Source of the DNA: Candidatus Falkowbacteria bacterium
GTDB taxonomy: Bacteria; Patescibacteriota; Patescibacteriia; CAIXNZ01
Assembly (NCBI GenBank): GCA_963774955.1
Contig: CAVZGV010000004.1
Span: 195,522 to 259,521 of the forward strand
DNA length: 64,000 bases
Direction: 5' to 3'
Part shown: positions 9,532-50,419 of the stretch, in pieces
Layout: the number at the start of each line of letters is the position of its first letter
Numbering within the stretch: position 1 is the stretch's first letter
The notes under the pieces: model-generated
Seen by the model: only the letters and a program-made list of their open reading frames with translations
Told to the model about the DNA's origin: nothing
Databases searched by the model: none
Program-made: the position numbers and the translations under genes

Positions 9532-9679
9532 TTTTGGCTAATTTTAAAGTAATACTTCTATAAAAAGACCGATAATTCGGTCTTTTTTATTTTTTGATTA
9601 GTATACTAGTCAACTTTTAGCTAAAATCCTTGACGAAAGTTTTAAATATGCTATAATGTGATTATTATAATGATTAAAT

Positions 9680-11353: not shown

Positions 11354-11474
11354 TATATAGGATTGAATAAAAGGTCGCATTAGCGGCTTTTTATTATTGA
11401 CAAAATTTATTAATTATGCTAAGATGGTATTAATTAATACCTTTAAAGTATAGTAATAATAATCCTCAATTATT

Positions 11475-12032
11475 ATGCTGGAAAACTTATTCTCAAGCCA
11501 AGTAATTTTTAAGCTTTTGAGCCTGATGTTTAGCCAGGAAGAACAGGAATTTTCAACTCCGGAACTGGTTAAATTAACCGGTAAAAAACAGACCAATATC
11601 ATGCGTGAGCTGGAAAAATTGGCTAATTGGGACATGGTGATTAAAACTAAAAAGGGCAAGCAGAATTTTTATCGGCTTAACACCAAATACGCTTTTTATG
11701 AGCAGTTAAAAAGTCTGTTTTTAAGATATTTAGGTGCCAACAAAAAGTTTATGGTTTACACGGAGGAAGCCAATGCCGCTTTGCTCACGCTTAATTATTT
11801 TTCTATTGCCTATGCCAATCCCCTGGCTGTTAATTTGGGCATTTTGAGTCAGATGCCAGATTTGCTTTCATATTACAAAAATAATTATGTGCGTTTTTAT
11901 TTTGAAAAAGACGTGGTAGAAAAAATTACTGCTGAATCATTAAAGAAGCTGAGAACTGATGCCAGCTTTGTTAAAGATATTATTTACCAGCAATCAATTG
12001 CCAAAGGCGAAGAAGCTTTGAGTTTTATTTAA
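11475..12032 (+). CDS. Winged-helix transcription-regulator-like protein
   Basis: 'STPELVKLTGKKQTNIMRELEKLANWDMVIKTKKGKQNFYRL' winged HTH. 185 aa. Confidence 0.4.
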   Translation: MLENLFSSQVIFKLLSLMFSQEEQEFSTPELVKLTGKKQTNIMRELEKLANWDMVIKTKKGKQNFYRLNTKYAFYEQLKSLFLRYLGANKKFMVYTEEANAALLTLNYFSIAYANPLAVNLGILSQMPDLLSYYKNNYVRFYFEKDVVEKITAESLKKLRTDASFVKDIIYQQSIAKGEEALSFI

Positions 12033-12035
12033 CAA

Positions 12036-13208
12036 ATGAAGGCCAACGATTATAAAGTTACAGCCGCAGAAGCTTTAAAGCTGCTGGATCAATTTACAGA
12101 TATTATTAATACCCAGATTTCCTTAAACTGCATCGCTATTTTAGATTTATTTAATGAGCCGTACAGCAATTATTTAAAAACCTATTTACAGAAGCAGATC
12201 AAAGAGACTGATTTACGCCTGAATTATGTACTGGAAAAATTACTAGCGCCTGAGCAGCTGACCTGGACCCAGCTTTACCGCCGTGAAATGATCAAGCTGG
12301 TTTTAAAGTATAAAGCAGAAAAGATTGACTATAAGCCTGAACTGCAAACCATTCATGCCAATTGGAAATGGCTGAACTTCAATTACCGCGGACCGGAATA
12401 TACTCTGGAATATTTTGCACAGATATTTAATGAAATGATAAATAAGGCTTTGTCTGAGCTGGAAATAGAGCTGGATTTTATTGATAATAATCAGACTTAC
12501 GTCCTCAAAGAAAAAAACAAAATTTTTAAAGAGCTGAAAATCGACCAGCAACACCAGGATTACATCAATGCTTTGAGCATCCTCTCGTATTTGAAAGTCT
12601 ATCGTAAAGATACGGCTTTTTTATTGGTTTTTCTAACTCTTAAAATCATGGAACAGTTTGCGGACGGTTTGAAAAAGGAAAACTGGCTTTATTTGACTCA
12701 GTCTGAGGCGCGCGATCTGATCAAGGGGCAGTTAAATGTTACTAAAGCTCAGCTGATTGAAAGGGAAAAGGAATGCGCTTACCTCGGTCAGGAAAAGATA
12801 TTAATGGTAGGTCACGACGCCGCCAAATTCGTGGCTGATAATACCATAGCGGATAAATTTAGCGAAGCCGGTGGTTTAAAACTCTTAGAAGGAACCACTG
12901 CTTGTTTGGGTAAAACCGGTGACTGGGTGTACGGCAAAGTAAAAATTATTAATCAGCCAGAAGATATGAGTAAAATGGAATACGGGGACATTTTGGTCTC
13001 TTATGCGACCATTCCTGATATTTTGCCAGCCATGAAAAAAGCCGCAGCCATTGTCACTGATCAGGGTGGTATTACTTCACATGCAGCCATTGTTTCCCGC
13101 GAATTAAATATTCCCTGCGTGATCGGCACCAAATATGCCACTAAAGTCTTTAAAGACGGAGACAAGGTGATTGTCTGTCCGCGTCATGGGCATATTAGAT
13201 TTCAATAA
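12036..13208 (+). CDS. Swivel-domain paralog 2 (helical N-terminal domain plus PEP-utilizing mobile domain)
   Basis: C-terminal 'DILVSYATIPDILPAMKKAAAIVTDQGGITSHAAIVSRELNIPCVIGT'. The 'W-x-W-L-N-F-N-Y-x-G-P' motif is shared with the other paralogs. Confidence 0.7.
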   Translation: MKANDYKVTAAEALKLLDQFTDIINTQISLNCIAILDLFNEPYSNYLKTYLQKQIKETDLRLNYVLEKLLAPEQLTWTQLYRREMIKLVLKYKAEKIDYKPELQTIHANWKWLNFNYRGPEYTLEYFAQIFNEMINKALSELEIELDFIDNNQTYVLKEKNKIFKELKIDQQHQDYINALSILSYLKVYRKDTAFLLVFLTLKIMEQFADGLKKENWLYLTQSEARDLIKGQLNVTKAQLIEREKECAYLGQEKILMVGHDAAKFVADNTIADKFSEAGGLKLLEGTTACLGKTGDWVYGKVKIINQPEDMSKMEYGDILVSYATIPDILPAMKKAAAIVTDQGGITSHAAIVSRELNIPCVIGTKYATKVFKDGDKVIVCPRHGHIRFQ

Positions 13209-13259: not shown

Positions 13260-14793
13260 ATGGCTTTAAGACAACAATTTGACCGCAAAAATATTTTAAT
13301 CTTCCCTTGGTATATTGCGGATTTGACCTTAACTAAGGATATTGCCGCCATTGCTGACGGCCAAAAAGTTAAGGATTGTTTGGTTATTATTGAAAATTAT
13401 TATTTTAAATATGCCATGGATGTGGACTCGGTCAAAGAGACTGCCCTGGCGATTTTAAATAAATTGGTCAGTGATCCTAAATATTTTGCTTTGGCTAAGA
13501 AGATGATTTATGATTTTGGCGAAGACTTGCTGGCCTTTGGTGACAAAATTAAGGATATTGATTTAGCTCAGGCCAGTAACGAAGATTTATTGAATATTTA
13601 TGCTGAATATACGGAACATTTGAAAGCCATGCGCACCTGGGGCTGGATCCCGGCCATTATTGATGGCACGACTGAAAGCTTTTTGACCGATACGATTATG
13701 GCTAAATTCGGCGCCTATTTAAAAATAATTAATCAGGAGGATAAAATTGCAGCTTTTTACAGCTTATTAAGCTCCAGTGAAAAAATGAGCGAAGTCCAGA
13801 CAGAGGAATTGGCCAGGCTGGATTTACTTTTTAAAATTTTAAAGGATAAGCAAACTGCGTCAAATACTTGATCTGATCAAGTCCAATAATTATCAAGAAA
13901 TAAAAACGCAATTTCCTAAAATATTATAAATTATTAGCTAAACATTTACAGGATTTTGCCTGGCTGCCTTTTGCTTATATTGGCCCGGTCATGTCCTGGG
14001 AATATTTATTTAAATTAATTAATGATAATTTAAACAGCGGGGATATTAAGGCTCAGAAAGAAAAAATCATCAATCATTACAAATCAATTAAAAAAGACAA
14101 AGCCGCTTTGATTAAGAAATTAAAATTGCCGGCTGATTTGCAGTATATTTTTCAGATTTCCACTGAATTCATGTTTATCAAAGATTACCGCAAGGGCATT
14201 TATCAGAAATCTTATGTTTATATGGATCCGGTCATGGCTGAAATCGCCAAAGACTTAAGTCTGAACTTTAAAGCAGGTCAAATTTTTAATTTATGAAGAT
14301 GTTGCTGATGCTTTATTGAATAATAAGGCGGATTTTTATCGTCAGACTGTGCCGAACAACGCCAAAAAAAATGTTGTTATTATGCGACTGACGGTGCAAT
14401 TAAAGTTTATCAGGGGGAAGAATGTGAACAAATGATTAGCTAAATATCTTAAGAGCAACACCGCAAGTTGACGTCAGCCACATTAAGGAATTAAAAGGCA
14501 TGACTGCTTACCCGGGTAAAGTTACTGGTACTGCCAAGATTGTCTTATTGGAAAAAGATGTCAGCAAAGTCCAGGCCGGTGATATTTTGGTTTCTTCGGC
14601 GACTAATCCTGATTTGATTGCGGCCATGAAAAGAGCTGCTGCCTTTGTGACTGATACGGGCGGTATAACTTGTCATGCGGCCATTGTCTCTCGTGAGTTG
14701 AAAAAGCCCTGTATTATTGGCACTCAGCATGCGACTAAGGTCATTAAGGATGGTGATCATGCTGGAAGTTGACGCTGACCATGGCATTGTCAA
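13260..14793 (+). pseudogene. Decayed swivel-domain paralog, broken into three frames (ORFs 13260-13871, 13991-14296 and 14500-14772)
   Basis: Family motifs appear in consecutive frames, including 'DFAWLPFAYIGPVMSWEY' upstream of the 13991 ORF with no start codon. The swivel domain ends 'KDGDHAGS*', while the +1 frame continues 'MLEVDADHGIVKILNK*'. This indicates a 1-nt indel near 14746. Confidence 0.55.
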
Positions 14794-14827
14794 AATTTTA
14801 AATAAATAATTAATTTAAGTAAAATTT

Positions 14828-15432
14828 ATGTCTATCTTAGAAATAAAAAATTTACCCGAGCAATATGAGGCGCTTTGGCAGCGCTGCGCGCCTTTATTAC
14901 AAAAAGGACGGCCAGATGACGAGGGCCATGCCAAAGATACAGTGGAATTTGTTTTAAATTATCAGGGCGATTTGCCGTTTGATCCGGAAGTCATTATTCC
15001 CGTGGCTATGATGCATGATATCGGCCATTCCGCGTTATTGCCAGAGCATTTAAAATACGTACTGGCGGCGTTAAAATAAAAAATGGCAAATTGGTTCACA
15101 TGCTGGCCGGCGCGAAAATTGCTCATGATTTATTGGTTGACAATTAAGCTATGATCACGGCCAATATCAAGGAAATCGTGGATATTATCAGTATTCATGA
15201 CTGGGATCAATTGGACATTCCTGAGGCAAAGACGGTTTATGATACTGATAATAAAAAGTTCTTTCATGATATTGATGCATTAGACCGCTTTAATCAGGAG
15301 CGTTTGGAATATTATAAAAATTCATTTCAGCAGGGTGAACTGCAGAAATTGATAACCAAGCAGTTGGATGTTTTCTTTTATCCGGAATTTAAAAAAATCG
15401 CCGAGGCGAGATTCAAAATTTTGAAGTTTTAA
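14828..15432 (+). pseudogene. HD-domain phosphohydrolase, interrupted by in-frame stops and a frameshift
   Basis: 'MMHDIGHS' HD motif in ORF 14828-15079. After the TAA, the same frame continues 'KNGKLVHMLAGAKIAHDLLVDN*'. A third piece (15151-15432) lies in another frame. Confidence 0.4.
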
Positions 15433-15436
15433 ATTT

Positions 15437-16880
15437 ATGATTAGCGATGTCTTAAAAAAATACAGCCAAGGGCGGAACTTAATGAAGCAAGAAGGCGCCT
15501 TCTCTTTATTAGCATCTTATGGTTTTTGCGCGCTCGGTTTATTTGGACCAAAGTGGTATGACCTTTACCGCAATGATTATAATTTTTTCTTGGGCATATT
15601 TGATCAGACGAATGGCCTTTTTGTTTTTGATTGGGGTAAATATAAGGAAACCACCGACATTGAATATCGTCTGATGATTAAAGAAGGTAAAGGTAGTTAT
15701 TTAAGAGTTTTACCTTTATTTGAGAAGCATTCTGCCGAGATGTTTAAACTCTATCAGGCCAATCATCCAGCAGTTATTGCTAAAATGGATATTGAAAAAT
15801 TAAGGCAACATATTATTAATTCAAATGAATTAACTTCAATTATATTAAGAGACACGCTGTTTAGCGAGTCTTTTGATGAAGATATGGCCAAAGTCTATTA
15901 TTTGCAGGCAGGCGGCCAGGAAGAATATTTCCAGGAATTTTTTGCCATGACCTCTGCGTTGACGTTTGATTCATTTAAATTTAGGAGAGATAAGATTATC
16001 TTAAATGATGCAAAACAAAAAAAGATTGATTATTATAAGTTGCAATACATATATACTGATCACTTTGCTGGCAAACTTTTAATTGAGGTTGAAAAAATGG
16101 TGAATAATTTGAATTTTAATATACTTTTGGAAGAGATAAAAATTAATGATCAACAGGTAGAGAATAATAAAGAAAGAAGGGAAAAATACATCCAAGCTTT
16201 ACCCGACAGTTTGAAAGCATTAGCTCATTTTATGGAAGTGACCATGCGCATCAGAGATGAAAGGCAAGATTGTTTTGCCCAAGGTATGACCATTGCATAT
16301 AACTGCGCTTATGAATACTTTAAGCGGCTAGGTTTTAATCCTAAAGATTGTATTTATTCTTTTTATACTGACTATTTGAATAATATTTTGGAAAACCCCG
16401 AATATTCACAACTGATTGAGAACAGAAAAAAGGGCTGTGCCGTGATTGCAGAAGCAGGCCAGCCAGTAAAATATACCTGGGAATTCAAGGAATATCAGCA
16501 AGTTACGCCAGGAATTTTTAGATATTGTTGAAGCTTCAGTTAAAAAAGAAAATTCCCTAGAGCAGATTAAAGGCCAGGTTGCTAATCCAGGCAAGATAAA
16601 GGGCATGGTTAAAATAGTTTTAAGCAGTACTGATTTTGCCAAATTTAATAAGGGTGATATTTTAGTCGCCTCTATGACCAGGCCAGAATATGTGCCAGTA
16701 ATGAAAAAGGCTAAAGCAATTATCACTGATGAAGGCGGTATCACCTGCCATGCCGCCATTGTCTCCCGGGAATTAAATATACCCTGCATAATTGGCACTA
16801 AAAATGCGACTAGAATTTTGCAAGATGGGGATGAAGTGGAAGTGGATGCCAATAATGGCACCATTAAGATAATTAAATAA
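15437..16880 (+). pseudogene. Swivel-domain paralog with a single frameshift at about 16490-16509. It could instead be an authentic frameshift or a sequencing error.
   Basis: ORF 15437-16531 carries the N-terminal family motifs ('RIRDERQD', 'RKKGCAVIAEAGQ'). Frame 0 is open from 16470 and reads 'RQEFLDIVEASVKKENSLEQIKGQVANPGKIKGMVKIVL', which continues into ORF 16605-16880, a complete swivel domain. Confidence 0.55.
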
Positions 16881-16886
16881 TATTTT

Positions 16887-18395
16887 ATGACTGAGACTAA
16901 AAATAATGTAACGAAATTAGACTGGCAGGAATACATCCGCAGCGGCGCCAATTATCATCTGATGCTGCCTTATGTTGACGGCATCACCCTTGGCGTTAAG
17001 GCAATATTCGGCCAGTCAATCAGCCATTTCATGGCCTTTTTTGAAGGCACGACATTATACTGGTACTATGTTGCCCAGGAATTAGCTGCTTTGGGCAGAG
17101 TTATTGTCGCCAAATTATTGGAGTCTGAGTTTAGAACTAATTTTTTTGCAGTCTGGAATAATTATAAAAATGAACTGGACAATTTGATTAATAAATTTCA
17201 GCTGGAACAAATTAAAAAATTATCTAACCAGGAACTGGCTGACCTTTATCGCGGCTATTTTAAGCAATTGACTGAGTGGTGCGGCTATAGCATGTCCATA
17301 GATGCCACGGATGAATCTTTAATGGCGGATATCCCCACCAGAATTAAAGCTATCATGAAAAATGTCTTGGCTGACGGTTATACAGAAAAGGAATATATCA
17401 GAGCGTATAATATTTTAACCCAGCCGGAAAAATTTTCCTACATGAACGAAGAACGGCTGGCATTATTACAGCTGGCTAAAGATTTACAGTCCGACACAAT
17501 TAAAAAGGACGATTTGGCCTATCAGCAGCAAGTTCAAGCCGTTTTGGATAAATATTGGTGGACTGATATGGGCTGGGCTAAAGGCCAACCAAAAACTAAA
17601 AGCGATGTGGCTAAAAGCTTGGAAGAAATTGTTAAGGCAGGTCAGGATCTTGACGAGGAAATTAAAAAGATTAAAGCTTTACCCGCCAAAATAAAAGCTG
17701 CTAAAGCTGAACTGGAAAAAACCTACCAGTTTAGTCAGGATCAAGATTTAATCCAATTACTGGATTTATTTGACCAGTTGGTTGAATATCATGATTTAAG
17801 GAAAGAAACGCAGATGAAAACTAATTACTGGCACTATCTGGTTTTTGCGGAGATTGCTCAAAGAAAAATGATTGAGCCGCAGCTTTTAGACTGGTGTAAT
17901 TTGGCTGAACTGGAAAGTTTATTAATCGGGAATGAATTTGATCGGGAGGAAATGAGCCGCCGCTCAGTTAATTACCTAAGATTAAATCTTGAGGGAGTTT
18001 TGAGCCTTTATGCCGGCGAAGAAGCCAAAGCCAGGCATGATGAGGTTTTAGGCTTGCAGTTGGAGCAGGTGCATGATTTGCAGGGTATTAGCGCTTCTGC
18101 CGGCAAAGTGGCCGGCCGCGCCCTGGTTGCCCTAAGCATTGAAGCAGCCAAAGATATTAAGCCGGGTGAAATTTTAGTGACTGGCATGACCACCCCGGAA
18201 TTTGTGCCGGCCATGAAGAAAGCCGCGGCCATTGTTACTGATGAAGGCGGGATTACCTGCCATGCGGCCATAATTTCACGAGAGCTGGGACTTCCCTGTG
18301 TGGTCGGCACCAAATTCGCCACCCGCCTGATTAAAACAGGTGATCTGATTGAAGTGGCAGCCAATCACGGTATTGTTAGATTATTAAATAAATAA
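16887..18395 (+). CDS. Swivel-domain paralog 5
   Basis: C-terminal 'GEILVTGMTTPEFVPAMKKAAAIVTDEGGITCHAAIISRELGLPCVVGT'. Begins 7 bp after the previous gene. Confidence 0.7.
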   Translation: MTETKNNVTKLDWQEYIRSGANYHLMLPYVDGITLGVKAIFGQSISHFMAFFEGTTLYWYYVAQELAALGRVIVAKLLESEFRTNFFAVWNNYKNELDNLINKFQLEQIKKLSNQELADLYRGYFKQLTEWCGYSMSIDATDESLMADIPTRIKAIMKNVLADGYTEKEYIRAYNILTQPEKFSYMNEERLALLQLAKDLQSDTIKKDDLAYQQQVQAVLDKYWWTDMGWAKGQPKTKSDVAKSLEEIVKAGQDLDEEIKKIKALPAKIKAAKAELEKTYQFSQDQDLIQLLDLFDQLVEYHDLRKETQMKTNYWHYLVFAEIAQRKMIEPQLLDWCNLAELESLLIGNEFDREEMSRRSVNYLRLNLEGVLSLYAGEEAKARHDEVLGLQLEQVHDLQGISASAGKVAGRALVALSIEAAKDIKPGEILVTGMTTPEFVPAMKKAAAIVTDEGGITCHAAIISRELGLPCVVGTKFATRLIKTGDLIEVAANHGIVRLLNK

Positions 18396-18400
18396 ATCAT

Positions 18401-19729
18401 ATGATCAATTTTAAAAAAGAAGATTTTTTCATGACTGGTTCGGCTCAGTCGGCTTTGATTTATAACTACATTTCAGCCTTGGGTTCTTTAAGCTCATTTG
18501 GCAAAGCTAATGGTGGGATATTATTGTATGAAAATAATGTTGTAACGTTTTATTTTTCTAAACAAGGTATTATTGATTTTAAAAATAAATTGATCAAGAA
18601 GAAAATCGAATATTTTGAAAAAAATTTTACACGCTGGCAGGCAAAATGGCGGAACAAAGAAGCGATTCTTTATAAATTAGCTACACAGGGTAAAAATTGG
18701 CGTAAGAACTGGCAGCGTTTAGACAAATTATGTTTTAAGTACTGGCATGATTCTTATTTTGTTGATACCTATGATCATTTTGCCGAAGAATTTGACCGGC
18801 AAATTATTAAATCTTTAAAAAAGGCCAGGCTTGATCCGGAATTGCGCAATGAATTAGTCTTACCTGACGTAGCGACTAAAGTTCAGGAAGTAGCGGTGCA
18901 ATTACAGGCAGTTAAAGACGGACAATTATCCAAATCAGAATTTTTGAGAAAGTATTGGTATAGCCATGGCTCCTGGAACGGGGGAGAAGTATTAACCAAA
19001 GAATTATTAGACAAAGATCTGGCCAGTATAGATATTGATCTGCATTTTACAATCAGGAAAAAGATCCACGAGGAAGTTGATCCCAAATTGGATAAAAAGA
19101 CCTTAAATTTGCTCAGAGTCCTAAGATTCTTTGCGCTTTGGCGTGATGAGCGTAAGGCCTTTTTGCAAATGATCAGCTTGGGTTTTCGTAAAGTCGCCTT
19201 AGCTGCAGCCAACGAATTAAACGTTGAATCCAAAGCAATTGAATTTGCTTTCCGCGATGAAATTGATGAAGTTTCACATAATCCTCAAAAATTTTTAGAA
19301 CGCAAGAATAGATCAGTTTTATTACTTCCCAATTCTCAGACTCACGGCCAAATTTTGGTTGGAGCCGAAGTAGAGCCGTATTTCCAGGAATTTATGGCCA
19401 CGACCGAAGTCCGGGAAATCAAGGGCATTGTGGCCTCACCGGGCAAAGTCCAGGGAATTGCCAATGTAATTTTACGTCAGCATCAGTTTTTTGAATTTAA
19501 TGAAGGCGATATTTTAGTCACTACCATGACCCGGCCGGAATTTATGCCTTTAATGAAGAAAGCTAGCGCTATCGTCACTGACGAAGGCGGACTGACTTGT
19601 CATGCAGCCATTGTTTCCCGGGAATTAAAAAAGCCCTGCATTGTGGGCACAAAAGATGGGACCAGGATTTTTAAAACAGGGGATAAAATAGAAGTTGATG
19701 CTAACTTGGGGGTGATTAAGAAAATTTAA
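18401..19729 (+). CDS. Swivel-domain paralog 6
   Basis: 'WRDERKAF' motif. C-terminal 'GDILVTTMTRPEFMPLMKKASAIVTDEGGLTCHAAIVSRELKKPCIVGT'. Confidence 0.7.
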   Translation: MINFKKEDFFMTGSAQSALIYNYISALGSLSSFGKANGGILLYENNVVTFYFSKQGIIDFKNKLIKKKIEYFEKNFTRWQAKWRNKEAILYKLATQGKNWRKNWQRLDKLCFKYWHDSYFVDTYDHFAEEFDRQIIKSLKKARLDPELRNELVLPDVATKVQEVAVQLQAVKDGQLSKSEFLRKYWYSHGSWNGGEVLTKELLDKDLASIDIDLHFTIRKKIHEEVDPKLDKKTLNLLRVLRFFALWRDERKAFLQMISLGFRKVALAAANELNVESKAIEFAFRDEIDEVSHNPQKFLERKNRSVLLLPNSQTHGQILVGAEVEPYFQEFMATTEVREIKGIVASPGKVQGIANVILRQHQFFEFNEGDILVTTMTRPEFMPLMKKASAIVTDEGGLTCHAAIVSRELKKPCIVGTKDGTRIFKTGDKIEVDANLGVIKKI

Positions 19730-19739
19730 GTACATAAGT

Positions 19740-21251
19740 ATGAATCCATTAGAGCGGATTAAACAATTTAAACCAGGCGATTGGTATCCGGAAAATACTC
19801 CCTCCCGGCCTTTAATGGTATCAGGTATTGCCAGAGGCTTTACTACCAATATTCTTAAAAACTATAAGCTGGTGCTCTGTTATTTTAGTCAGGGAAAAGT
19901 GTCCTGGATTACTTTGATTAAAGACCAGCAGGAAATAGGAGAACTGATTTGGCAAAAGCAAATGCAGGATAATAAGTATTGGCTTAACCAATTTGCGACT
20001 TATGAGCAGATTAGAAATAATCTGGCTCAAAATTTTGACTTACTTAAAAATAAGTATTTAAGAGAGTTAAGTGATAATCAGCTTGTTGAGGACATAAATA
20101 ATTACGTGACTCAGCAGTGGGCCACCAGAAAATATGATAGTTTGGTAGATCCTTATCTGTTTTATGCGGAAAATAAACTCCCTGAGTTATTGAGGCAATT
20201 TGTCCGGGCCAAGGCGGAAATTGCCTTAAAGCCCCAGGAAGCAATGGAAATTATTACCAAACCAGAAGTACCTTTCTTTTTAAACAAATACTTTTTAGAT
20301 TTGATCGATATTGCCAGGTCAATCAAAAGTGATCATGAGTTAGCAGCTAAAATTTTAGCTGAAGAAATCAAGGAAGCTGATTTACCCCAAGGTTTAATTG
20401 AGCGAATTAAAAAGCATGCAGACAAATATTGCTGGATTAAAGTGGAAAGTTTTTATGGTGCCAATGAGTATACTTTCAATCATATTATAAACGAATTGCA
20501 AAAATTGTTAGCGGCTGATTTAGAGGCAGAAGAAAATCAACATAAAGCCTGGCAGCATAATAAAAAAATAAGGCAGGAATTTTTGATTAAGCACAATTTT
20601 AGTGATGAGATTCGGGCGTTTGCGGATTTGGCGCCTGTATTTGCCAAATGGCAGGATTTAAGAAAGATTAATTCCGTTATGACCACCTATTTGCACGCCA
20701 AATATCTGCAGGAATTGAGTAGGCGGCTAGGTTTGACTGAAGATGAATTGGCTTACCATGATTTTCAGGAGCTAACCCAAATATTACAGGGTAAAATCGG
20801 GCAGGCTGAATTACAGAAAAGAAAAGAAGGCTGTCTGTTTGTCTTTCAGAATGACGGTTTTGAAATGTTTTATAAAGAAGATGTGCAGGATTTAATCAAT
20901 GACATTGTAAATCCGGATTTAAAGGGGATTACTGAATTCAGCGGCATGGTTGCCTCGACCGGCCAGACCCAGGGAACGGTTAAAATTGTCATTACAGTTG
21001 AGGATATGCAGAAAATGAACAAAGGCGATATCCTGGTTTCTACCATGACCAGGCCGGAACATTTACCGGCCATGAAAAAGGCTAGCGCCATAATTACCGA
21101 TGAAGGCGGCATTACCTGTCACGCGGCCATAATTTCCAGAGAATTAAACATTCCCTGCGTCATTGGCACTAAAATCGCCACTCATGTTTTAAAAGATGGC
21201 GATCAAGTAGAAGTTGACGCCAATCAAGGTATAGTTAAAATAATTAAATAA
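19740..21251 (+). CDS. Swivel-domain paralog 7
   Basis: 'WQDLRKIN' motif. C-terminal 'GDILVSTMTRPEHLPAMKKASAIITDEGGITCHAAIISRELNIPCVIGT'. Confidence 0.7.
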   Translation: MNPLERIKQFKPGDWYPENTPSRPLMVSGIARGFTTNILKNYKLVLCYFSQGKVSWITLIKDQQEIGELIWQKQMQDNKYWLNQFATYEQIRNNLAQNFDLLKNKYLRELSDNQLVEDINNYVTQQWATRKYDSLVDPYLFYAENKLPELLRQFVRAKAEIALKPQEAMEIITKPEVPFFLNKYFLDLIDIARSIKSDHELAAKILAEEIKEADLPQGLIERIKKHADKYCWIKVESFYGANEYTFNHIINELQKLLAADLEAEENQHKAWQHNKKIRQEFLIKHNFSDEIRAFADLAPVFAKWQDLRKINSVMTTYLHAKYLQELSRRLGLTEDELAYHDFQELTQILQGKIGQAELQKRKEGCLFVFQNDGFEMFYKEDVQDLINDIVNPDLKGITEFSGMVASTGQTQGTVKIVITVEDMQKMNKGDILVSTMTRPEHLPAMKKASAIITDEGGITCHAAIISRELNIPCVIGTKIATHVLKDGDQVEVDANQGIVKIIK

Positions 21252-21260
21252 ATTAGAAAT

Positions 21261-22715
21261 ATGTTAACATTTTCAGATTGGCAAAATATTTTAAACGAAG
21301 ATTGGTATATCCAGGGCTTTAATGCCGCTCCGATTTTTCTTAATACCGCAGCATATAGTGGTTTGATTATGAAAGACAAGGTGGGGTTTGGCTACACTCA
21401 TTTTTTGTTTCAATACCAAAAGAAATATGCGGAAATGGGTTACTTAAATGATGATTTTATGCGTCTATGGCAGATTATCAAGGAAAAATTGGCGGCTGAC
21501 TCCGATTATTTATCTAAAGTTAAAAAACAGTATGAAACTGAATTGGAGCAATATGAGCCTATTCATAAAAGATTGGAGCAGGAAGATTTAACAAAACTGG
21601 ATGATTCAGAAATCATTAAATTATTAAAAAGCTCTTGCCGGAATATGACTGATGCGGTTGGCATTGCGCATTTGATCGAGCCGATCGGCATTTTTTTGGA
21701 GCAGGAATTTAAAGCTGATTTAAAAAATTTTGTTCAGGAGGAAAAAGAATATAATCGCATTTTCGGCATATTGTCCACGCCGACCCAAAGTTCATTTTTA
21801 GCGCTTGAAGAACAGGAATTAAAAAACATTGCGGCTTTGAAATCTAATCAACAGGCTGCCGCACTGGCTGAACATGCCCGAAAGTATTTTTGGCTGAATA
21901 ACAGTTTTGCCGGGCCGCAGAACATTGATCCGGCGCAATTCAGTAAAAGATTGGCAGCCTTTAAAATGCAAAAAGTTGAAAATCCCTCAGTTTCAGCGGC
22001 TGAACAAAAGAGTGGCTTAATTAAGACTTTAAGGTTAGATCAGGCAATCATTAAAAAGATTGGAATTATTGATTACTGCACTATTTGGCAGGATGAACGC
22101 AAAATCAATGTGCTTAAAGCAATCGGATATTTAGGCAAAGTATTAGCTGAACTCGGACGACGTTTGAACATTGATCCTGTTAATCTTTATTTTTTGGCAA
22201 CTACTGATTTTTTAAATATTAAATCCATAGCCGAGTTAAAATCCTTAGAACCTGAATTGCTGGCTCGACAAGCTGGTTCATTCTTCCTGATTAACGGTCT
22301 AAACCAGGAAGAAGTCGCCAGGGGAAGTGATTATGAGAAATTAATCGATTATAAAAAGGAATTGGAAGTTACGCAAAGCTTTAAAGGTACTGATTTGCAC
22401 GGTTCTATTGCCAATGGCGGCACAGCGATCGGCATTGTAAAAGTTTGCAAAAACTTAAGCCAAATTCACAAAGTTCAGCCAGGAGATATTTTAGTTGCTT
22501 CCATGACGCGTCCCGAATATATTCAGGCAATTAAAAAGGCTGCGGCCATTATAACTGATGAGGGCGGCATTACCTGTCATGCAGCCATTGTGTCCCGGGA
22601 ATTAAATATCCCGGCCGTTATTGGTACCAAAATCGCCACCAAAGTTTTAAAAGACGGCATGAAAGTCGAAGTCAAAGCCAATCACGGCTTGGTCAGAATT
22701 TTAGAAAATATTTAA
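21261..22715 (+). CDS. Swivel-domain paralog 8
   Basis: 'WQDERKIN' motif. C-terminal 'GDILVASMTRPEYIQAIKKAAAIITDEGGITCHAAIVSRELNIPAVIGT'. Confidence 0.7.
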   Translation: MLTFSDWQNILNEDWYIQGFNAAPIFLNTAAYSGLIMKDKVGFGYTHFLFQYQKKYAEMGYLNDDFMRLWQIIKEKLAADSDYLSKVKKQYETELEQYEPIHKRLEQEDLTKLDDSEIIKLLKSSCRNMTDAVGIAHLIEPIGIFLEQEFKADLKNFVQEEKEYNRIFGILSTPTQSSFLALEEQELKNIAALKSNQQAAALAEHARKYFWLNNSFAGPQNIDPAQFSKRLAAFKMQKVENPSVSAAEQKSGLIKTLRLDQAIIKKIGIIDYCTIWQDERKINVLKAIGYLGKVLAELGRRLNIDPVNLYFLATTDFLNIKSIAELKSLEPELLARQAGSFFLINGLNQEEVARGSDYEKLIDYKKELEVTQSFKGTDLHGSIANGGTAIGIVKVCKNLSQIHKVQPGDILVASMTRPEYIQAIKKAAAIITDEGGITCHAAIVSRELNIPAVIGTKIATKVLKDGMKVEVKANHGLVRILENI

Positions 22716-22731
22716 ATAGTATATTAATATT

Positions 22732-24198
22732 ATGTTGACTCTCGATCAAGTTAAAAATATCAAATGGTATCGCCAGTCAGGGGCGGGGATTCCATTGAGC
22801 ATTGGCATGCCATTTTTGGGCATTGCCATCATGAATAAAGTTTCCGGTTTTTATTACCCCAATGATTTGGGTACTTTTTTGAAAACTGGCAAGGGTTTTA
22901 CTTTTTATCATTACTTTGATTATTTTTTGACCCTGGAACAGGTCAAGAAAATTTTTAAAACATTGGAACAAGATCCTGAGCATTTTAGCAAACTTAAGGG
23001 GAAATTTTATCAGGCCGGACCTAAAATGGAAGCCGAGGGTTTAGCGATTCTCGATAAGTCAGTATTTTCTCACGAGTTCCAGCAGGGTTATCAAAAGACA
23101 TATGATTACACTATGGATTTTTGGGGTAATTCACTTTACGTTGACCTGATGGATCCTTTTGAGATTCAGGTCATTGATTTTATTTTTGGTGACATCAAAA
23201 AGAAAATAAACAAAGCAGAATTAAATATTTTAATGAGTCCGGATGAATTGTCCAATTACCAGAAGCAGCAAGCTGAGCTTTTGGAACTGCTTAAAGTCGC
23301 CCAGGCAAAAGGGATTGATAGCAGCGAGGTCTTAACAGGTGCAAAAGAATTATCCCGTAGATATTACTGGCTCAAAAATGATTATGAAAAAGTGGAATTT
23401 CTTGATGCCGATTATTTTATGAATGAAATCAAGAAATTGTTGGTAGATCCCAAGGAAGCTGATAATATCAGCAGAAATCTGCAGAAAAGTCGTGAGTTAC
23501 AGATTGAGAAGCAGACAATTATTAAAAAATATAATTTTTCGGAGATATTGGTTAATCATCTGAATTTTTTCAACTGGGTGACGATCTTGCGAGATGACCG
23601 CAAAAAATATAACCAGATCAGCAATTATATTCTGATTAAAACCATTGAAAAAATTTCTGAGGAAGCAGGAATTGATCTTGAGCTTTTAAAATATGCCATG
23701 CCCAATGAAATAATTAAAATAATTAATAAGGATGCTAAAATCGCGACTGAACTGGAGCAAAGAGCCAATTTGGGCTTAATCGTGTTTGCCGATACCATTG
23801 AAGTGCTGGAAGTTTACTCTGGTAAAATCGCCAAAGAATATTTTGACATCATTGAAAGTACTATTGCTGCCTCGGAAATTAAAGGTACGACTGCTTCACC
23901 CGGTAAAGTTATCGGCACAGCCAAAATTATTTTAAGTCAGCATGATTTTGATAAAATGAAGCCAGGCGATATTATTGTCGCTTCCATGACCAGGCCGGAA
24001 TATGTGCCGATTATGAAAATTGCTCTGGCGATTGTAACTGATGAAGGAGGGATTACTTCGCACGCAGCTATTGTTTCGCGGGAATTAAATATACCCTGCA
24101 TTACTGGAACCCAGGTAGCAACGAGGTCTTTACAAGACGGAGATTTAATTGATGTTAATGCCGATCATGGTTTAGTAAAAATAGTTAAGAAAGCGTAG
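22732..24198 (+). CDS. Swivel-domain paralog 9
   Basis: 'LRDDRKKY' motif. C-terminal 'GDIIVASMTRPEYVPIMKIALAIVTDEGGITSHAAIVSRELNIPCITGT'. Confidence 0.7.
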   Translation: MLTLDQVKNIKWYRQSGAGIPLSIGMPFLGIAIMNKVSGFYYPNDLGTFLKTGKGFTFYHYFDYFLTLEQVKKIFKTLEQDPEHFSKLKGKFYQAGPKMEAEGLAILDKSVFSHEFQQGYQKTYDYTMDFWGNSLYVDLMDPFEIQVIDFIFGDIKKKINKAELNILMSPDELSNYQKQQAELLELLKVAQAKGIDSSEVLTGAKELSRRYYWLKNDYEKVEFLDADYFMNEIKKLLVDPKEADNISRNLQKSRELQIEKQTIIKKYNFSEILVNHLNFFNWVTILRDDRKKYNQISNYILIKTIEKISEEAGIDLELLKYAMPNEIIKIINKDAKIATELEQRANLGLIVFADTIEVLEVYSGKIAKEYFDIIESTIAASEIKGTTASPGKVIGTAKIILSQHDFDKMKPGDIIVASMTRPEYVPIMKIALAIVTDEGGITSHAAIVSRELNIPCITGTQVATRSLQDGDLIDVNADHGLVKIVKKA

Positions 24199-24264: not shown

Positions 24265-25170
24265 ATGTTTAAAAACAGCTTGGAGCTTGGTCCTGATTCC
24301 GTCAATAAATTAACTAAGAAAAAAGAACGCTACGAAAATGCCAGTTCAGTAATTGAGCTTAATTTTTTTCGCCATGGCGACAAGGAAAGCGATAAAAGTA
24401 AGTCTGATTTGGAGATTGAACTGACCAAGGCGGGCGGCAAAGAAGCAGCGGCCAAAAGTAAAACTAAAAGCATTGAGCAGTCTTTGGCTTTGGGCAGCGC
24501 CAGAAACAGGGCTCAACAGACCGCCGGTTTGGTCATGGCCGGGCGCTCTGAGCGCATTACCGGCGAGGAAAGCTTAGCCGAACTCAAAATAAAACTTGAT
24601 CAAGAATTGAAAGTCGGCTCTAAAATCGGCATTGATAAGCGCTTGGATTTTATCATGGACATGAACAGACCCTATGACCAGGAGCTGATGGTGGCTTTTA
24701 AAAAAGGTGAATTTTTACCATTTTTATTTAATGATAGCGATCAACTAGCTAAAGCAGAGGACCTAAAAGAGGGCATGACTTATTCAGGCACGGCCAGTGA
24801 AATTGCCAAGATCGTAGCCAAATATCTAAAAATTGCGCCGCGCTGGGACCAATTGGTTGCTGATGACAAAAAGAAATACTCCAAAATTATGGAAAGATAT
24901 CTGGGCAGCCATCAGGGTGTGGTTGAAACGTTTTTAGCCAAAGTGATTGAAAAGACTAAAGGTGTAGAAGAAAGAAACAACTTTCAGGCAGTCTTAAATA
25001 ATCAGGGCTTTGGCTTTGTCGAAGGCTATCAGGTACAGATCATCAATAAAGCAGGGGAAAAACCGAAAGTATATATTTCGTATAAAAAAGAAAAAGACGG
25101 CCAAACAGTTTACCAATTTAACCAGGAAATAGAGTCACGAATTTTAGAGCAAATTATCAAAGGCAAATAA
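24265..25170 (+). CDS. Histidine-phosphatase superfamily protein (PGAM/SixA-like)
   Basis: 'FFRHGDKES' (RHG catalytic motif), 'LTKAGGKEAAA', 'GSARNRAQQTA' and later 'GSHQG' (second His). Confidence 0.5.
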   Translation: MFKNSLELGPDSVNKLTKKKERYENASSVIELNFFRHGDKESDKSKSDLEIELTKAGGKEAAAKSKTKSIEQSLALGSARNRAQQTAGLVMAGRSERITGEESLAELKIKLDQELKVGSKIGIDKRLDFIMDMNRPYDQELMVAFKKGEFLPFLFNDSDQLAKAEDLKEGMTYSGTASEIAKIVAKYLKIAPRWDQLVADDKKKYSKIMERYLGSHQGVVETFLAKVIEKTKGVEERNNFQAVLNNQGFGFVEGYQVQIINKAGEKPKVYISYKKEKDGQTVYQFNQEIESRILEQIIKGK

Positions 25171-25219
25171 GCAAAAGAAGAAGGCCAGGGAGAAATCCCT
25201 GGTCTTTGGTAAAAGCATT

Positions 25220-25771
25220 TTAGTCCGAGGCAATTACCGCCCTGATATTGCCCTCATCGTCCTGGATGAAGTCAACATACTCAAGCGGTTGCAGACTTCT
25301 GCCGGTGGCATCGCAGGCCATGGCGCAAAGGGAAATGATCGGGTCATGGCCGATAGCCAGACCATAGCCATCATCCGGCATTTGAGCGAACATTTTGATC
25401 AGACCGGATATGGCCCAGTCGCGGATGGGCTTGCGCTCCTCTTCCGTTTCAAAGGCAATCATGAAGGTGGCTAAACCATCATGGCCTTGGGCCGCAGCAT
25501 TTTTCCAGGCCGGGGTGGACAGAGTTTTGAACATTTCCTCATTGCCCAGTTCGGCCACGGCTTCATGCACGCGAATCTCGTAGCCGGTCCGCTGTTTGTG
25601 GCAGTGGCTGGCCAGCGCTGCCAATAGGGTTTGAGCGGTCCTGGCCCAGTCACTGTAAAACAGATCAGTGACATTGGTCAGGTCCACCTGTTTCCCGGCC
25701 TGCTGCAATCCAGCAGCACTGATGTTTTGGCCATTCTTGTCTCCATGCCGCATGTACCTGATTTTCTTCAT
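25220..25771 (-). CDS. Histidine-phosphatase superfamily protein (PGAM/SixA-like). The gene is compositionally G+C-rich.
   Basis: 'IRYMRHGDKNG', 'ISAAGLQQAG', 'SDWARTAQT', 'AIGHDPI'. It is markedly G+C-richer than its neighbours. Confidence 0.55.
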   Translation of the reverse strand: MKKIRYMRHGDKNGQNISAAGLQQAGKQVDLTNVTDLFYSDWARTAQTLLAALASHCHKQRTGYEIRVHEAVAELGNEEMFKTLSTPAWKNAAAQGHDGLATFMIAFETEEERKPIRDWAISGLIKMFAQMPDDGYGLAIGHDPIISLCAMACDATGRSLQPLEYVDFIQDDEGNIRAVIASD

Positions 25772-25889
25772 TTTTCCTCCGTATTTTGTCTTGTTTTTTG
25801 GCTAACCTCTGCGTGATTACTAATATAGTAGCTTATCATATTTTGAAAATAAAGTCAAGAGTAAATCACCTTTATTTTTAGGCTGATTT

Positions 25890-26567
25890 TTGCTATATTT
25901 AAGCTATTATAAGATACTAATTAAGCTCCTAGTTAAAATGATTATGTTAGACAAAGAATCAGGGTTAAACAGAGAAAAGGCGCCTGAATTTAAAAAAGTT
26001 GTCCAGGAATATAAGACATTATCGATTGCTTATGAATTGGCAATCAAGCCTTGCTTTATCTTTGGTGAAATATCAGATGCCTTGGATATTGCCCAGGTTT
26101 ATCAGATTATAAATTTGCAGTTTAAAGATAAAACAACTGGTAAAATCATAAAAATTGCTGACTTGGTTCCGGCTGGCTTTAAACTGGGACTGGTTAAGGG
26201 GAGCGGAGCAAGATTTATCAGGCAGAAGAAATTAATAACCGTGCCTAGCCTCGGCGAACCGGGTAATCAATTTGTTTTGTTGCATGAGATTGGTCATGCT
26301 CATCAAAAAAGAAAAGAGGAAGATAATTTTCATAAGCTAAATACCAAAGACGGCGAATTGGATATTTTAAATCATCTTTCAGATCAGGAATTTAGAAAAG
26401 AATGGCCGTTTGAAGAACAGGCGGATAAATTTGCTGCCGAAAAATTATTAGAAATACGCAGGCAAGGTCTTGACCTGGAGCCGGAAAAGCCCGGTCAGAT
26501 ATTAGAAGATTACATGAAAGAAAGATTAGACCGCTTAAAACATCTTATGTCACTTTGTGAAAAATAA
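25890..26567 (+). CDS. Putative HExxH zinc-metallopeptidase-like protein (ImmA/IrrE-like motif)
   Basis: 'FVLLHEIGHAHQKRKEED'. The exact start is uncertain because there are several in-frame ATGs. Confidence 0.35.
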   Translation: MLYLSYYKILIKLLVKMIMLDKESGLNREKAPEFKKVVQEYKTLSIAYELAIKPCFIFGEISDALDIAQVYQIINLQFKDKTTGKIIKIADLVPAGFKLGLVKGSGARFIRQKKLITVPSLGEPGNQFVLLHEIGHAHQKRKEEDNFHKLNTKDGELDILNHLSDQEFRKEWPFEEQADKFAAEKLLEIRRQGLDLEPEKPGQILEDYMKERLDRLKHLMSLCEK

Positions 26568-26583
26568 TTAAAATTATAAATTT

Positions 26584-27540
26584 ATGTCTGAATTAATCAA
26601 AATTTTCACAGAACTTAATAAAAACAGCACTCATTTAGCCGGAGGTAAAGGCGCGTCTTTGGGCGAGATGACCCAGGCAGGGATTCCGGTACCGCCTGGT
26701 TTTGTGGTTACGGCCAAAACCTTTGACCGTTTTCTGGCAGAAACTGATTTGACCCAGGAAGTAGAAGCCCAATTGGATAAGGTTAATTATGATGATGTAG
26801 CCTCTGTAGAAGAAGCTTCCAAGACAATTGCCGATTTGATCCATGATGCCAAGTTTCCGGAAGATTTGGAAATTGAAATTATGGCGGAATTTAAAAAATT
26901 AGATGTGGAATTTGTGGCAGTCCGTTCGTCAGCTACGGCCGAAGATTCTTCAGTGGCTTCCTGGGCAGGTGAGCTGGAAAGTTATCTGAATACTGATAAA
27001 AATCATTTATTGGGCAATGTTAAAAGATGTTGGGCTTCCTTATTTACCCCGCGAGCTATTGTTTATCGCATGGAAAAGGGTATGCGCGAAACAAAAGTAT
27101 CTGTTGCCGTGGTAATTCAGGCCATGGTGCAGTCAGATATTTCCGGTATTTGCTTTACAGTCCATCCGGTAACCAAAGATAAGAATCAGCTGATCATTGA
27201 GGCGGGATATGGTTTGGGTGAGGCTATTGTTTCCGGCCAGGTTACGCCTGATTCTTATGTTATCCATAAGGATGATCTGGAAATTATAGATATTAATATC
27301 GCCGACCAGGAAAGAAAAATTATGCGCAAACCAGAAGGCGGTAATCACTGGGTTGTGATTGATGCCGCAGACAGGGCTAAGCAAAAATTAGCTGGCGAGC
27401 AGATTATTGAATTAACTAAAATTTGTCTCAACATTGAAAAGCATTATGGTTTCCCCTGTGATATTGAATGGGTCATGACCAAAAAGTTAAATGAGTGGGA
27501 GTTCTTCATCGTGCAGTCACGGCCGATCACTACTTTATAA
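26584..27540 (+). CDS. Stand-alone PPDK_N-type ATP-grasp nucleotide-binding domain (the N-terminal domain of PEP synthase / pyruvate,water dikinase / rifampin phosphotransferase). It has no swivel or PEP-binding domains.
   Basis: 'LAGGKGASLGEMTQAGIPVPPGFVVTAKTF', 'VAVRSSATAEDSSVASWAGELESYLN', 'VAVVIQAMVQSDISGICFTVHP', 'LIIEAGYGLGEAIVSGQVTPDSYV'. It ends at 318 aa, followed by a terminator. Confidence 0.75.
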   Translation: MSELIKIFTELNKNSTHLAGGKGASLGEMTQAGIPVPPGFVVTAKTFDRFLAETDLTQEVEAQLDKVNYDDVASVEEASKTIADLIHDAKFPEDLEIEIMAEFKKLDVEFVAVRSSATAEDSSVASWAGELESYLNTDKNHLLGNVKRCWASLFTPRAIVYRMEKGMRETKVSVAVVIQAMVQSDISGICFTVHPVTKDKNQLIIEAGYGLGEAIVSGQVTPDSYVIHKDDLEIIDINIADQERKIMRKPEGGNHWVVIDAADRAKQKLAGEQIIELTKICLNIEKHYGFPCDIEWVMTKKLNEWEFFIVQSRPITTL

Positions 27541-36800: not shown

Positions 36801-36941
36801 GAATAACAAGAAGCGAGACGCGATGCGTTTCGCTTTTTAAAATTTAAAAATATCAGCATGCATTGACAAAGGACAAAGTTTAAGTTAAAATAGATAATCA
36901 AGGTTCTTTTTACTCCAAACGCTAGCCAAGGAGGCTTGATC

Positions 36942-38087
36942 ATGAAAAGATTGATAATTATCGTAACAGCCATAATTCTGGGAGGGATGCCAATGATAGC
37001 TAAGGCTCATTCTGTCGGTGTTAAGGTTTTGGACCTGAACAATGGCCAGAGGATCATTGTCTGGTATCCAGGCATCAGGTTGGCTAGACAGGAACCGTTT
37101 TCCCATTTTGGCAGGGCCAGAAGCTTAAATGCTTATCTTGACGCCCCAATCGATTTTTTTGGAGCGCCTTACCCGCTGATTGTCCGGTCTCATGGCTTGG
37201 GCATGGGTGCGCTGGACGCTGTTAACTGGTCTGTCAAAGTCGCGGCTGAAGGCTTCGTGGTTGTGGCTTTTGACCACAGCGATGCTCTGGCCTGTAAACT
37301 GGACGGGTCAAGTGATTTAGATTGGATTGCGGCCAGCAAGGCCATGATTCAGTATCATGATGACTTTGATATGGCGGTTCAGACCGCCTTTAGTCAAAGT
37401 CTGACTTATCTGGACAATTCGGTTTATCGTACTCGGGAATTTTCCGCTGTCTTGGATGGAGTCTTGGTTCATCCGTTTTTTCAGGGTTTAATTGATCCTG
37501 ATAAGATCGGCGCGGCTGGTCATTCTTTTGGCGGAGCTACAGTCCTGGCTTTAGGTCATCAGGCTGAAATGGATTGTACTGATCCGGCTAGCTATTCGCC
37601 GCAAATTTGCGGCACTAACCCAAGTACGGGGTTTTCAGGTAGCTTTTTAGCCAGTCAGTGCTGCCGGCCGGCTTATCAGGGCAAAAAGAGCAGCTTCTAT
37701 GACCCGCGAGTTAAAGCTGTTATGGCAGTCGGTCCTGGCACATTTCTTTTCTGGCCGCTGGAAGTCAATATTCCGGTCATGCTGATTAGCGGCGATCATT
37801 TCGAGGTTGATCAGCAGAACATGACCAAGCCGTTTGAAACATTTTCGCAGGTTTATTGGTTGGTGGTAAAGAACACCGACCACATGAACTGGGTATCCTG
37901 GATTTACAATAATATTCCCGGAGCGCCAATGTTTTTTAAAGGCTACAGAGCTTACTGGCTTAAGCAGGCGATTTTTCAGGAATATTCACTGGCTTTTTTC
38001 CAGGCTCACCTTAATGGCGATTTTACCCAGCTGAACAGGCTGAAAAATATTCATTGTTCCCGCATCAACTTCAGATATAAACCTTAA
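36942..38087 (+). CDS. Secreted alpha/beta-hydrolase (esterase/lipase-like)
   Basis: Signal peptide 'MKRLIIIVTAIILGGMPMIAKAHS'. 'GHSFGGA' nucleophile elbow (GxSxG). Shine-Dalgarno 'aaggagg'. Confidence 0.6.
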   Translation: MKRLIIIVTAIILGGMPMIAKAHSVGVKVLDLNNGQRIIVWYPGIRLARQEPFSHFGRARSLNAYLDAPIDFFGAPYPLIVRSHGLGMGALDAVNWSVKVAAEGFVVVAFDHSDALACKLDGSSDLDWIAASKAMIQYHDDFDMAVQTAFSQSLTYLDNSVYRTREFSAVLDGVLVHPFFQGLIDPDKIGAAGHSFGGATVLALGHQAEMDCTDPASYSPQICGTNPSTGFSGSFLASQCCRPAYQGKKSSFYDPRVKAVMAVGPGTFLFWPLEVNIPVMLISGDHFEVDQQNMTKPFETFSQVYWLVVKNTDHMNWVSWIYNNIPGAPMFFKGYRAYWLKQAIFQEYSLAFFQAHLNGDFTQLNRLKNIHCSRINFRYKP

Positions 38088-50338: not shown

Positions 50339-50419
50339 AAAGATATGTTTTTAAGTTTTAAAATATAATTATTTACCCATCTTTGCGGCTATAGCGTGGG
50401 TTTTGTCTGGGAAGTTTTT

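Follow-up and report, generated by a model that had tools for sequence, protein, structure and literature searches.

HpeHI, CreHI and PpsAB are two-component dikinases of small molecules and rifampin phosphotransferase (RPH) is a single-chain one (PMC12167813, PMC4844700). In the Hpe and Cre pathways the product is dephosphorylated at a later step (PMC12167813). SixA of Escherichia coli, a member of the histidine phosphatase superfamily, is presented in PMC7948535 as a phosphohistidine phosphatase acting on the HPt domain of ArcB and on NPr, the carrier of PTS-Ntr, a phosphotransferase system (PTS). We have analyzed a stretch of 64,000 nucleotides from a Candidatus Falkowbacteria bacterium (hereafter the window; positions 195,522 to 259,521 of contig CAVZGV010000004.1, assembly GCA_963774955.1) in which an array of dikinase modules is followed by two genes of the histidine phosphatase superfamily, HP1 and ORF2. 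The array resembles HpeHI, CreHI and PpsAB in that an ATP-grasp subunit is split from a partner in which a RIF-binding-like domain is joined to a His swivel bearing the T-x-H motif. It differs from them in having one ATP-grasp gene for 7-9 diversified modules (other lineages have it fused to 2-3 modules), in its hosts, Patescibacteria of minimal metabolism, in containing no carboxylase or oxidase genes, and in the linked histidine phosphatases or low-molecular-weight protein tyrosine phosphatases (LMW-PTPs), an association undescribed in the papers found. Actually, no publication describing these arrays or their linkage to phosphatases was found in the literature searched, and the survey of the resistome of the candidate phyla radiation (CPR) merely counts rph-like genes. 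The pairing of a swivel-type dikinase with a dedicated phosphatase is known from plants, where glucan-water dikinase (GWD) goes with the phosphoglucan phosphatases SEX4 and LSF2. Another precedent is the phosphoenolpyruvate (PEP) synthase regulatory protein (PSRP, DUF299), whose target is the Thr adjacent to the catalytic His. The T-x-H motif conserved in all the modules described here recalls the latter setting. However, the phosphatase families are unrelated (dual-specificity phosphatases in one case, DUF299 in the other), those systems have no genomic linkage, and carbohydrate-binding modules are missing here. Patescibacteria, or CPR, represent a large share of bacterial diversity and have tiny genomes with few recognizable regulatory or metabolic systems, and this locus devotes about 15 kb to its 7-9 diversified modules of the dikinase and to phosphohydrolases of as many as three kinds (hp1; hp2 or LMW-PTP; HD).

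The initial annotation had located two convergent histidine phosphatase genes directly after the swivel array, and open reading frames (ORFs) were confirmed at both positions. The start of HP1 (24265-25170, plus strand, 301 aa) lies 67 nt beyond the final swivel gene (22732-24198), and ORF2 (25220-25771, minus strand, 183 aa) faces HP1, with 49 nt between their stop codons. The HP1 and ORF2 families (hp1 and hp2 at the gene level) are very probably dedicated partners of the dikinase system. The comparison is based on loci that were retrieved via the phosphatases themselves, with mechanical ORF calling. All long contigs looked up for HP1 homologues (40-81% identity) had hp1 beside a swivel array or beside a fusion of the ATP-grasp domain (PPDK_N) with the swivel, the one exception in distance being an Azambacteria contig (L003) where it lies about 2 kb away. 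Among 29 loci from GTDB species representatives, the distance from hp1 to a dikinase gene was at most 300 bp in 22 and at most 2.6 kb in 25, the exceptions being L025, L031, L039 (contig edge) and L043 (partial match). Gaps of 1-15 bp or overlapping genes were frequent, whether the locus had one module or nine, and a single hp1 was present per locus irrespective of the number of modules (1-9). The hp2 gene adjoins PPDK_N or swivel genes in 10 of 11 informative loci (the window, L001/L002, L009, L044, L045, L047, L048, L049, L050 and L052), L046 being too short to judge its neighbors; it is on the strand opposite to the dikinase genes in all the linked loci but one, L050, in which hp2 and PPDK_N run in the same direction. 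A metagenome scan with a narrower hp2 alignment gave six loci. Thus the conserved synteny with swivel genes in relatives, whose lack the initial annotation considered fatal for its proposal, was found for both genes. The arrangement recurs in Parcubacteria/Paceibacteria, Uhrbacteria, Moranbacteria and contigs labelled Saccharibacteria. Some contigs are labelled as metagenome-assembled genomes of Gammaproteobacteria or Flavobacteriaceae, labels that may reflect mis-binning. Such a partnership of kinase and phosphatase provides a concrete handle on the role of the array, be it scavenging, detoxification or signalling, and would add an architecture of one charger and many modules to the subfamily of two-component dikinases, which has been defined only recently.

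The swivel proteins of the array carry the PEP-utilizers domain at their C-terminus. A profile of 20 module paralogues aligned to residues 521-878 of the Listeria RPH (5hv2) with an E value of 5.6e-32, a region that corresponds to the RIF-binding domain plus the swivel. The window contains a single stand-alone ATP-grasp (PPDK_N) dikinase subunit (26584-27540, plus strand; Pfam PPDK_N E 2.2e-99), identified by NCBIfam as the N-terminal third of PEP synthase / rifamycin phosphotransferase, together with at least seven intact modules, one of them with a helix-turn-helix (HTH) domain, and two fragmented ones. Five intact modules, each an RPH-like substrate domain followed by the His swivel, are in tandem between 16887 and 24198 on the plus strand (16887-18395, 18401-19729, 19740-21251, 21261-22715 and 22732-24198; PEP-utilizers E 1e-24 to 1e-27). 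Two more, recognized by N-domain and swivel HMM matches, are found between 9680 and 13208 on the same strand (9680-11353 and 12036-13208). Outside the swivel the paralogues are only about 25% identical, with an invariant G-G-x-T-x-H-A core; in the module alignment H444 is invariant and T442 at least 90% conserved. Judging from these sequence relationships, the array is related to RPH and to the two-component dikinases HpeHI, CreHI and PpsAB, as a split version with multiple modules. In other lineages PPDK_N is fused to two or three units of domain plus swivel, which supports the logic of one charger and many modules; these giant fusions (1,600-2,300 aa, or up to 1,764 aa in another tally) were seen at L015 4008-9302, L021 2143-7383, L030 5042-9922 and L052 1-6697. 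An HD-domain hydrolase gene is the third recurrent accessory (L001, L012, L037, L044, L045 and L052; frameshifted in the window), and apart from it no conserved modifying enzyme was found between kinase and phosphatase in any locus. As a separate observation, the module at 9680-11353 has an Xre-type HTH (HTH_26, E 2.5e-13) fused to the N-terminus of its RPH-like domain and swivel, and could be a phosphorylation- or ligand-dependent regulator.

HP1 contains the motif R36-H37-G38 and an exact version of the second motif reported for both genes, S-x-x-x-R-A-x-Q-T-A (S78-A-R-N-R82-A-Q-Q-T-A87). It matched Pfam His_Phos_1 (PF00300) at 23.9 bits (gathering 21.7; E 3.7e-5) along residues 34-109, an N-terminal stretch of 76 aa only. 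We found 70 homologues of about 290 aa, nearly all in Patescibacteria metagenomes. The alignment of 68 of them showed no variation at R36, H37, R82 and H216 and a conservation of at least 90% at E102; the G of RHG is not conserved, in this family or in that of ORF2. R36-H37, R82, E102 and H216 thus appear, by position, to be the Arg-His/Arg/Glu/His set of branch-1 histidine phosphatases. E102 falls in the stretch of HP1 aligned to the region of PhoE that bears its catalytic Glu. The AlphaFold2 model (pLDDT 93.4, pTM 0.90) consists of the core sheet, an insertion of about 100 aa that is mostly helical (its helices fall between 104 and 199 and are accompanied by a single short strand), and an additional three-stranded C-terminal unit. 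When compared with the PDB by Foldseek, many branch-1 phosphatases were retrieved at probability 1.0 (TM 0.4-0.6). The best matches are distant, with a query-normalized TM of 0.40-0.45, and all of them are small-molecule phosphatases: a mycobacterial hydrolase, RosC, TIGAR, phosphoserine phosphatase and glucosyl-3-phosphoglycerate phosphatase. The SixA entries ranked 18th and lower (0.28-0.31), and no phosphoglycerate mutase proper (dPGM) was among the top 50, so that best matches to metabolic phosphoglycerate mutases, the other finding that would have spoken against the first proposal, were not obtained. With PhoE (1ebb/1h2e), RosC, TIGAR, phosphoserine phosphatase and Rv2419c, HP1 shares the core fold, the helical cap and, at some 20-27 residues past the second Arg, a Glu. 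It differs from this group in the longer insertion and the extra C-terminal unit, in a TM that does not exceed 0.45, and in a sequence alignment confined to its first 80 residues or so, where PhoE, a broad-specificity phosphatase, was the best match of the HP1 family profile among PDB sequences (E about 5e-5).

The NCBIfam matches of HP1 (cobC, acid phosphatase, SixA and archaeal dPGM) were all many-fold, 5-10x, under the cut-offs. For the SixA model TIGR00249 the score of HP1 was 21.3 bits against a cut-off of 74.5; ORF2 had no match to it, and 20 of 68 hp1 members (best E 1.6e-6) and 4 of 77 hp2 members (best E 1.6e-3) were hit. The archaeal dPGM model was weakly matched by 17 of 68 hp1 members (best 2.5e-5), and the dPGM models of NCBIfam gave no match for either HP1 or ORF2; one JGI homologue of HP1 bears the annotation phosphoglycerate mutase. 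The idea that both proteins could be grouped with SixA is therefore not borne out. Neither belongs to SixA or to phosphoglycerate mutase, and each constitutes an uncharacterized family. By its alignment and predicted structure, HP1 is a divergent, capped family of its own with apparently intact catalytic residues. The cap, the small-molecule phosphatases at the top of the structural matches and an amidohydrolase fusion point rather to a small-molecule substrate. This fusion was observed in the Azambacteria contig L003 (3594-5564, plus strand), where a second hp1 copy is joined to a domain of the N-formylglutamate amidohydrolase (FGase) family and stands between PPDK_N and swivel genes.

ORF2 is more elusive. 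Single-sequence searches of Pfam, NCBIfam and the PDB returned nothing relevant, and only two close homologues (72% and 56% identity) were found among 5.8 billion proteins. A three-sequence profile expanded the family to 153 representative clusters of about 160-200 aa. The first motif is present as R8-H9-G10, as the initial annotation indicated for both genes, and the second (S40-D-W-A-R44-T-A-Q-T-L49) has two mismatches, so that its presence in both holds exactly for HP1 only. In 77 aligned members R8, H9, R44, T48, G76, H142 and P144 are conserved in at least 90%, and E74 is nearly invariant among close relatives; the roles of second Arg, second His and acid were assigned by position in both proteins, and in ORF2 R44 and H142 are about 98 residues apart. 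His_Phos_1 was matched by 21 of the 77 members scanned (best 3.8e-8), ORF2 itself not being among them. The family profile aligned to TIGAR and to the putative SixA 4hbz in the PDB (E about 1e-4), and a second stretch aligned the GH-x-P motif with 4hbz, a match individually non-significant (E about 150). Comparison of both families by hhalign gave a probability of 94% over the N-terminal motifs. SixA has a minimal fold of about 160 aa that lacks a substrate cap, so that proteins can reach its active site. ORF2 is similar in size to SixA (183 versus 161 aa) and might possibly work like it; HP1 is twice as large as SixA, and capped. As far as their conserved positions indicate, both proteins have the residues that define branch 1 of the histidine phosphatases; HP1 also has the profile and fold of the branch, and ORF2 the profile at family level only.

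That ORF2 is a real coding gene under purifying selection follows, as read from the alignments, from the ratio of non-synonymous to synonymous rates (dN/dS) with two orthologues (0.336/2.48 and 0.184/1.66, about 0.11-0.14), a ribosome-binding site, GGAGG, located 5 nt ahead of the ATG (upstream region 25772-25849, minus strand) and the lack of any Rfam match. A structured RNA as the cause of its G+C richness was rejected on the last count and on the coding signal. Its non-synonymous rate is 3-8x that of HP1 (0.107) or PPDK_N (0.042). In other lineages the antisense slot, which falls either within the dikinase array or at its end, is occupied by other small phosphatases: two LMW-PTPs (L010 10945-11382, shared by L010/L011, and L028 3040-3489) with the C-x5-R-S motif intact, and four other His_Phos_1 subtypes (L012 11105-11812, L026 10916-11536, L027 1881-2525 and L037 885-1484), all on the minus strand. 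LMW-PTPs are a family known mainly as protein phosphatases.

We tentatively propose a division of labor, a reading that we hold at somewhat less than even confidence, in which ORF2 would reset the phospho-modules and HP1 would hydrolyze their products. The single ATP-grasp protein would pyrophosphorylate the catalytic His of many interchangeable modules, each composed of a substrate-binding domain and a swivel, and each module would hand the phosphate to its own acceptor, as happens in RPH, HpeHI, CreHI and PpsAB. HP1, the last gene of the operon and often translationally coupled, would then hydrolyze the phosphomonoester products, making the phosphorylation a transient step of activation or capture. 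This role is suggested by its helical cap, its matches to small-molecule phosphatases, the FGase fusion, its position at the end of the operon and the later dephosphorylation in the Hpe and Cre pathways. ORF2 would be a protein phosphatase stripping the charged swivel modules, at the catalytic His or at the neighboring Thr of T-x-H, and acting as a brake or reset; its small size, a GH-x-P as in the putative SixA, the interchangeability with LMW-PTP and the regulatory style of the arrangement favor this assignment, and SixA is a precedent within the superfamily for action on a PTS phosphocarrier (PMC7948535). In both enzymes the His of the RH motif (H37 and H9) would be the nucleophile, used together with a pair of Arg, another His and a Glu as acid/base.

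Several points weigh against this division of labor. Most hp1 loci are devoid of hp2, and in L051 no dikinase gene was present up to 8 kb away from hp2. The AlphaFold2 model of ORF2, made from a three-sequence alignment only, has a pLDDT of 47 and is unusable. A cap is compatible with protein substrates, as in the capped Sts-1 and PGAM5, and a single phosphatase serving as many as nine different modules is as consistent with a common substrate, the swivel, as with a broad-specificity esterase. The equivalence of LMW-PTP and hp2 in the slot is inferred from position, orientation and composition. Besides, in any version of the scheme, the kinase amounts to a futile ATPase when it is expressed along with a phosphatase that acts on its product or on its phospho-enzyme, barring an intermediate step or tight control of that phosphatase.

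An alternative is that both proteins are SixA-like phosphohistidine protein phosphatases resetting the phospho-His of the swivels, neither of them acting on small molecules. It would explain why one hp1 suffices for one to nine modules, the swivel being the only element common to all of them, and why hp1 is translationally coupled to a dikinase gene. SixA has with HP1 and ORF2 the superfamily and the catalytic R-H...R...H set in common, its pathway contains a PEP-utilizer swivel domain, its substrates as presented in PMC7948535 include the PTS phosphocarrier, and the existence of an HTH-fused module is a hint at a possible information content of the phosphorylation state. We nevertheless consider this unlikely, given that HP1 is large and has an extensive helical insertion, that it matches small-molecule phosphatases most closely and has a lower TM with SixA, and given also the score far under the cut-off of the SixA model, and the fusion to a small-molecule amidohydrolase. 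Furthermore, no two-component or PTS partner is present here, and constant ATP consumption would result if a constitutive phosphohistidine phosphatase were co-translated with the kinase.

It is likewise rather doubtful that both are small-molecule phosphoester phosphatases working downstream of the modules (phosphorylate, use, dephosphorylate) without any protein substrate, along the lines of the Cre and Hpe aromatic pathways or of GWD with SEX4/LSF2. The majority of the His_Phos_1 enzymes act on small molecules, and the recurrent HD-domain hydrolase, present in six loci, suggests a general turnover of phosphoesters; the characterized two-component dikinase pathways include the later dephosphorylation step (PMC12167813). 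But kinase and phosphatase have no conserved modifying enzyme between them in any locus, the antisense slot is interchangeable with LMW-PTP, and the separate placement of ORF2 on the opposite strand looks regulatory.

A more speculative possibility, which we regard as quite improbable, is that array and phosphatases form a previously unrecognized sensing or regulation system of the histidine-phosphorelay type in Patescibacteria. The ATP-grasp protein would charge ligand-specific modules (one of them fused to a DNA-binding HTH), the ligand would discharge them, and hp2 or LMW-PTP would reset them. Selection would keep the phosphatase genes antisense, G+C-rich and atypical in codon usage, as a means of throttling or timing their expression.

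The composition of ORF2 is indeed peculiar. The window has a G+C of 0.393, with a mean ORF G+C of 0.40 and a mean G+C at third codon positions (GC3) of 0.41. The values for ORF2 are 0.545 (z 3.4) and 0.647 (z 3.8-4.5), the highest of 54 non-overlapping ORFs, which confirms that the minus-strand copy is G+C-richer than its neighbors. The G+C-rich block coincides with the coding sequence (0.51-0.64 within, 0.24-0.41 in the immediate flanks), and the amino acid composition is shifted too (Gly, Ala, Arg and Pro, GARP, z +1.8); HP1 is ordinary (z 0.2). The initial annotation saw in this a sign of recent acquisition, and a recent horizontal import of ORF2 from a G+C-richer donor, settled beside the array by chance and with no functional link, would also account for the scarcity of close homologues. 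This explanation is largely refuted and we find it very improbable. The closest relative (L001) has an ORF2 orthologue at the same position and in the same orientation, with a similar excess (G+C 0.498 versus 0.381; GC3 0.56 versus about 0.38), at a saturated dS of 2.5 (1.7-2.5 between the orthologues of ORF2, and 0.9-2.5 across all the genes compared between window and L001). The hp2 genes were G+C-richer than their flanks in all 12 loci, by +0.01 to +0.15 (sign test p = 5e-4), and their G+C tracked that of the host (r = 0.87, slope 0.74), the offset being almost gone in a host of G+C 0.575. Since all 12 members share the offset, the G+C tracks the host and the offset persists despite saturated dS, long residence fits better than recent import, and the G+C richness of ORF2 is a maintained property of its family. 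The linkage to dikinase genes and the lack of flanking repeats or mobile-element genes are also at odds with a chance import. For comparison, 35 hp1 genes had no offset (mean -0.012). The phosphatases of the antisense slot in other lineages exceeded their flanks by +0.16 to +0.22 and had the top GC3 of the locus in 5 of 6 cases, the L010 LMW-PTP being second. Candidate causes are selection on codons or mRNA, a mutational regime particular to the site, or repeated exchange from a gene pool of higher G+C; for translational selection on GC3, the other G+C-rich ORFs of the window were not recognizable as highly expressed genes. A local G+C anomaly need not mean recent transfer, and here a gene-specific composition is maintained across hosts of 27% to 58% G+C. 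In the same L010 locus we noticed a second G+C-rich antisense ORF (9333-9914, minus strand, 193 aa) just upstream of hp1, whose N-terminus resembles a degenerate phosphatase motif (FFAITHADK, with T-H for R-H). The public gene call over it is on the opposite strand and looks spurious.

Finally, that both genes are housekeeping metabolic enzymes (dPGM, CobC or phosphoserine phosphatase) unrelated to the array is hardly credible, as the weak N-terminal matches to the cobC, acid phosphatase and archaeal dPGM models and the single JGI annotation are outweighed by scores far below the curated cut-offs, by the structural matches free of dPGM and by a lineage-wide linkage to dikinases.

Between HP1 and ORF2 there is a G+C-rich hairpin (25181-25206; inverted repeat CCAGGGA-gaaa-TCCCTGG at 25185-25202), which a consensus scan marked as a terminator-like site (25202-25185) at least for the minus strand, and a candidate sigma-70-like site, a consensus match only, was located upstream of ORF2 (25849-25822). 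Between ORF2 and the ATP-grasp gene lies a gene for an ImmA/IrrE (M78)-like metallopeptidase (25890-26567, plus strand; Pfam Peptidase_M78 E 0.0027, below the cut-off; PADLOC capP E 3.3e-6). It had no tblastn match in any fetched locus and, being absent also from the closest relative, is probably not a core part of the system. The two modules at 9680-13208 are separated by a winged-helix-like ORF of 185 aa (11475-12032, plus strand) that matched PDC-M05A, a phage-defence-candidate model of PADLOC (E 1.4e-16), and weakly also winged-helix models of the Csa3/CARF type. The search for defence systems with PADLOC gave no match for HP1, ORF2, PPDK_N or the modules. An anti-phage defence system was rejected, the hits being limited to the peripheral M78-like and winged-helix ORFs, and so was a mobile cassette, with no notable flanking direct or inverted repeats and no integrase beside ORF2 in the window.

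The two fragmented modules are located on the plus strand at 13260-13871, 13991-14296 and 14500-14772 (the first) and at 15437-16531 plus 16605-16880 (the second), recognized from HMM matches to pieces of N-domain and swivel. The frameshifted HD-hydrolase gene lies between them (14828-15426, plus strand), where the HD protein of L001 gave two tblastn high-scoring pairs in different frames. The broken modules and this gene (13260-16880) reflect either decay or sequencing error. Farther away in the window, ARAGORN called a tRNA-Leu(CAG) at 37315-37396 (plus strand), within the ORF 36936-38087. Rfam found no tRNA at gathering score in the whole window, so that one of both calls, or the ORF, is doubtful. 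Beside a gene for a solute-binding protein, two adjoining genes at 49742-51409 (minus strand) code for proteins with domains like the pilins of type IV secretion systems (T4SS; PF18895).

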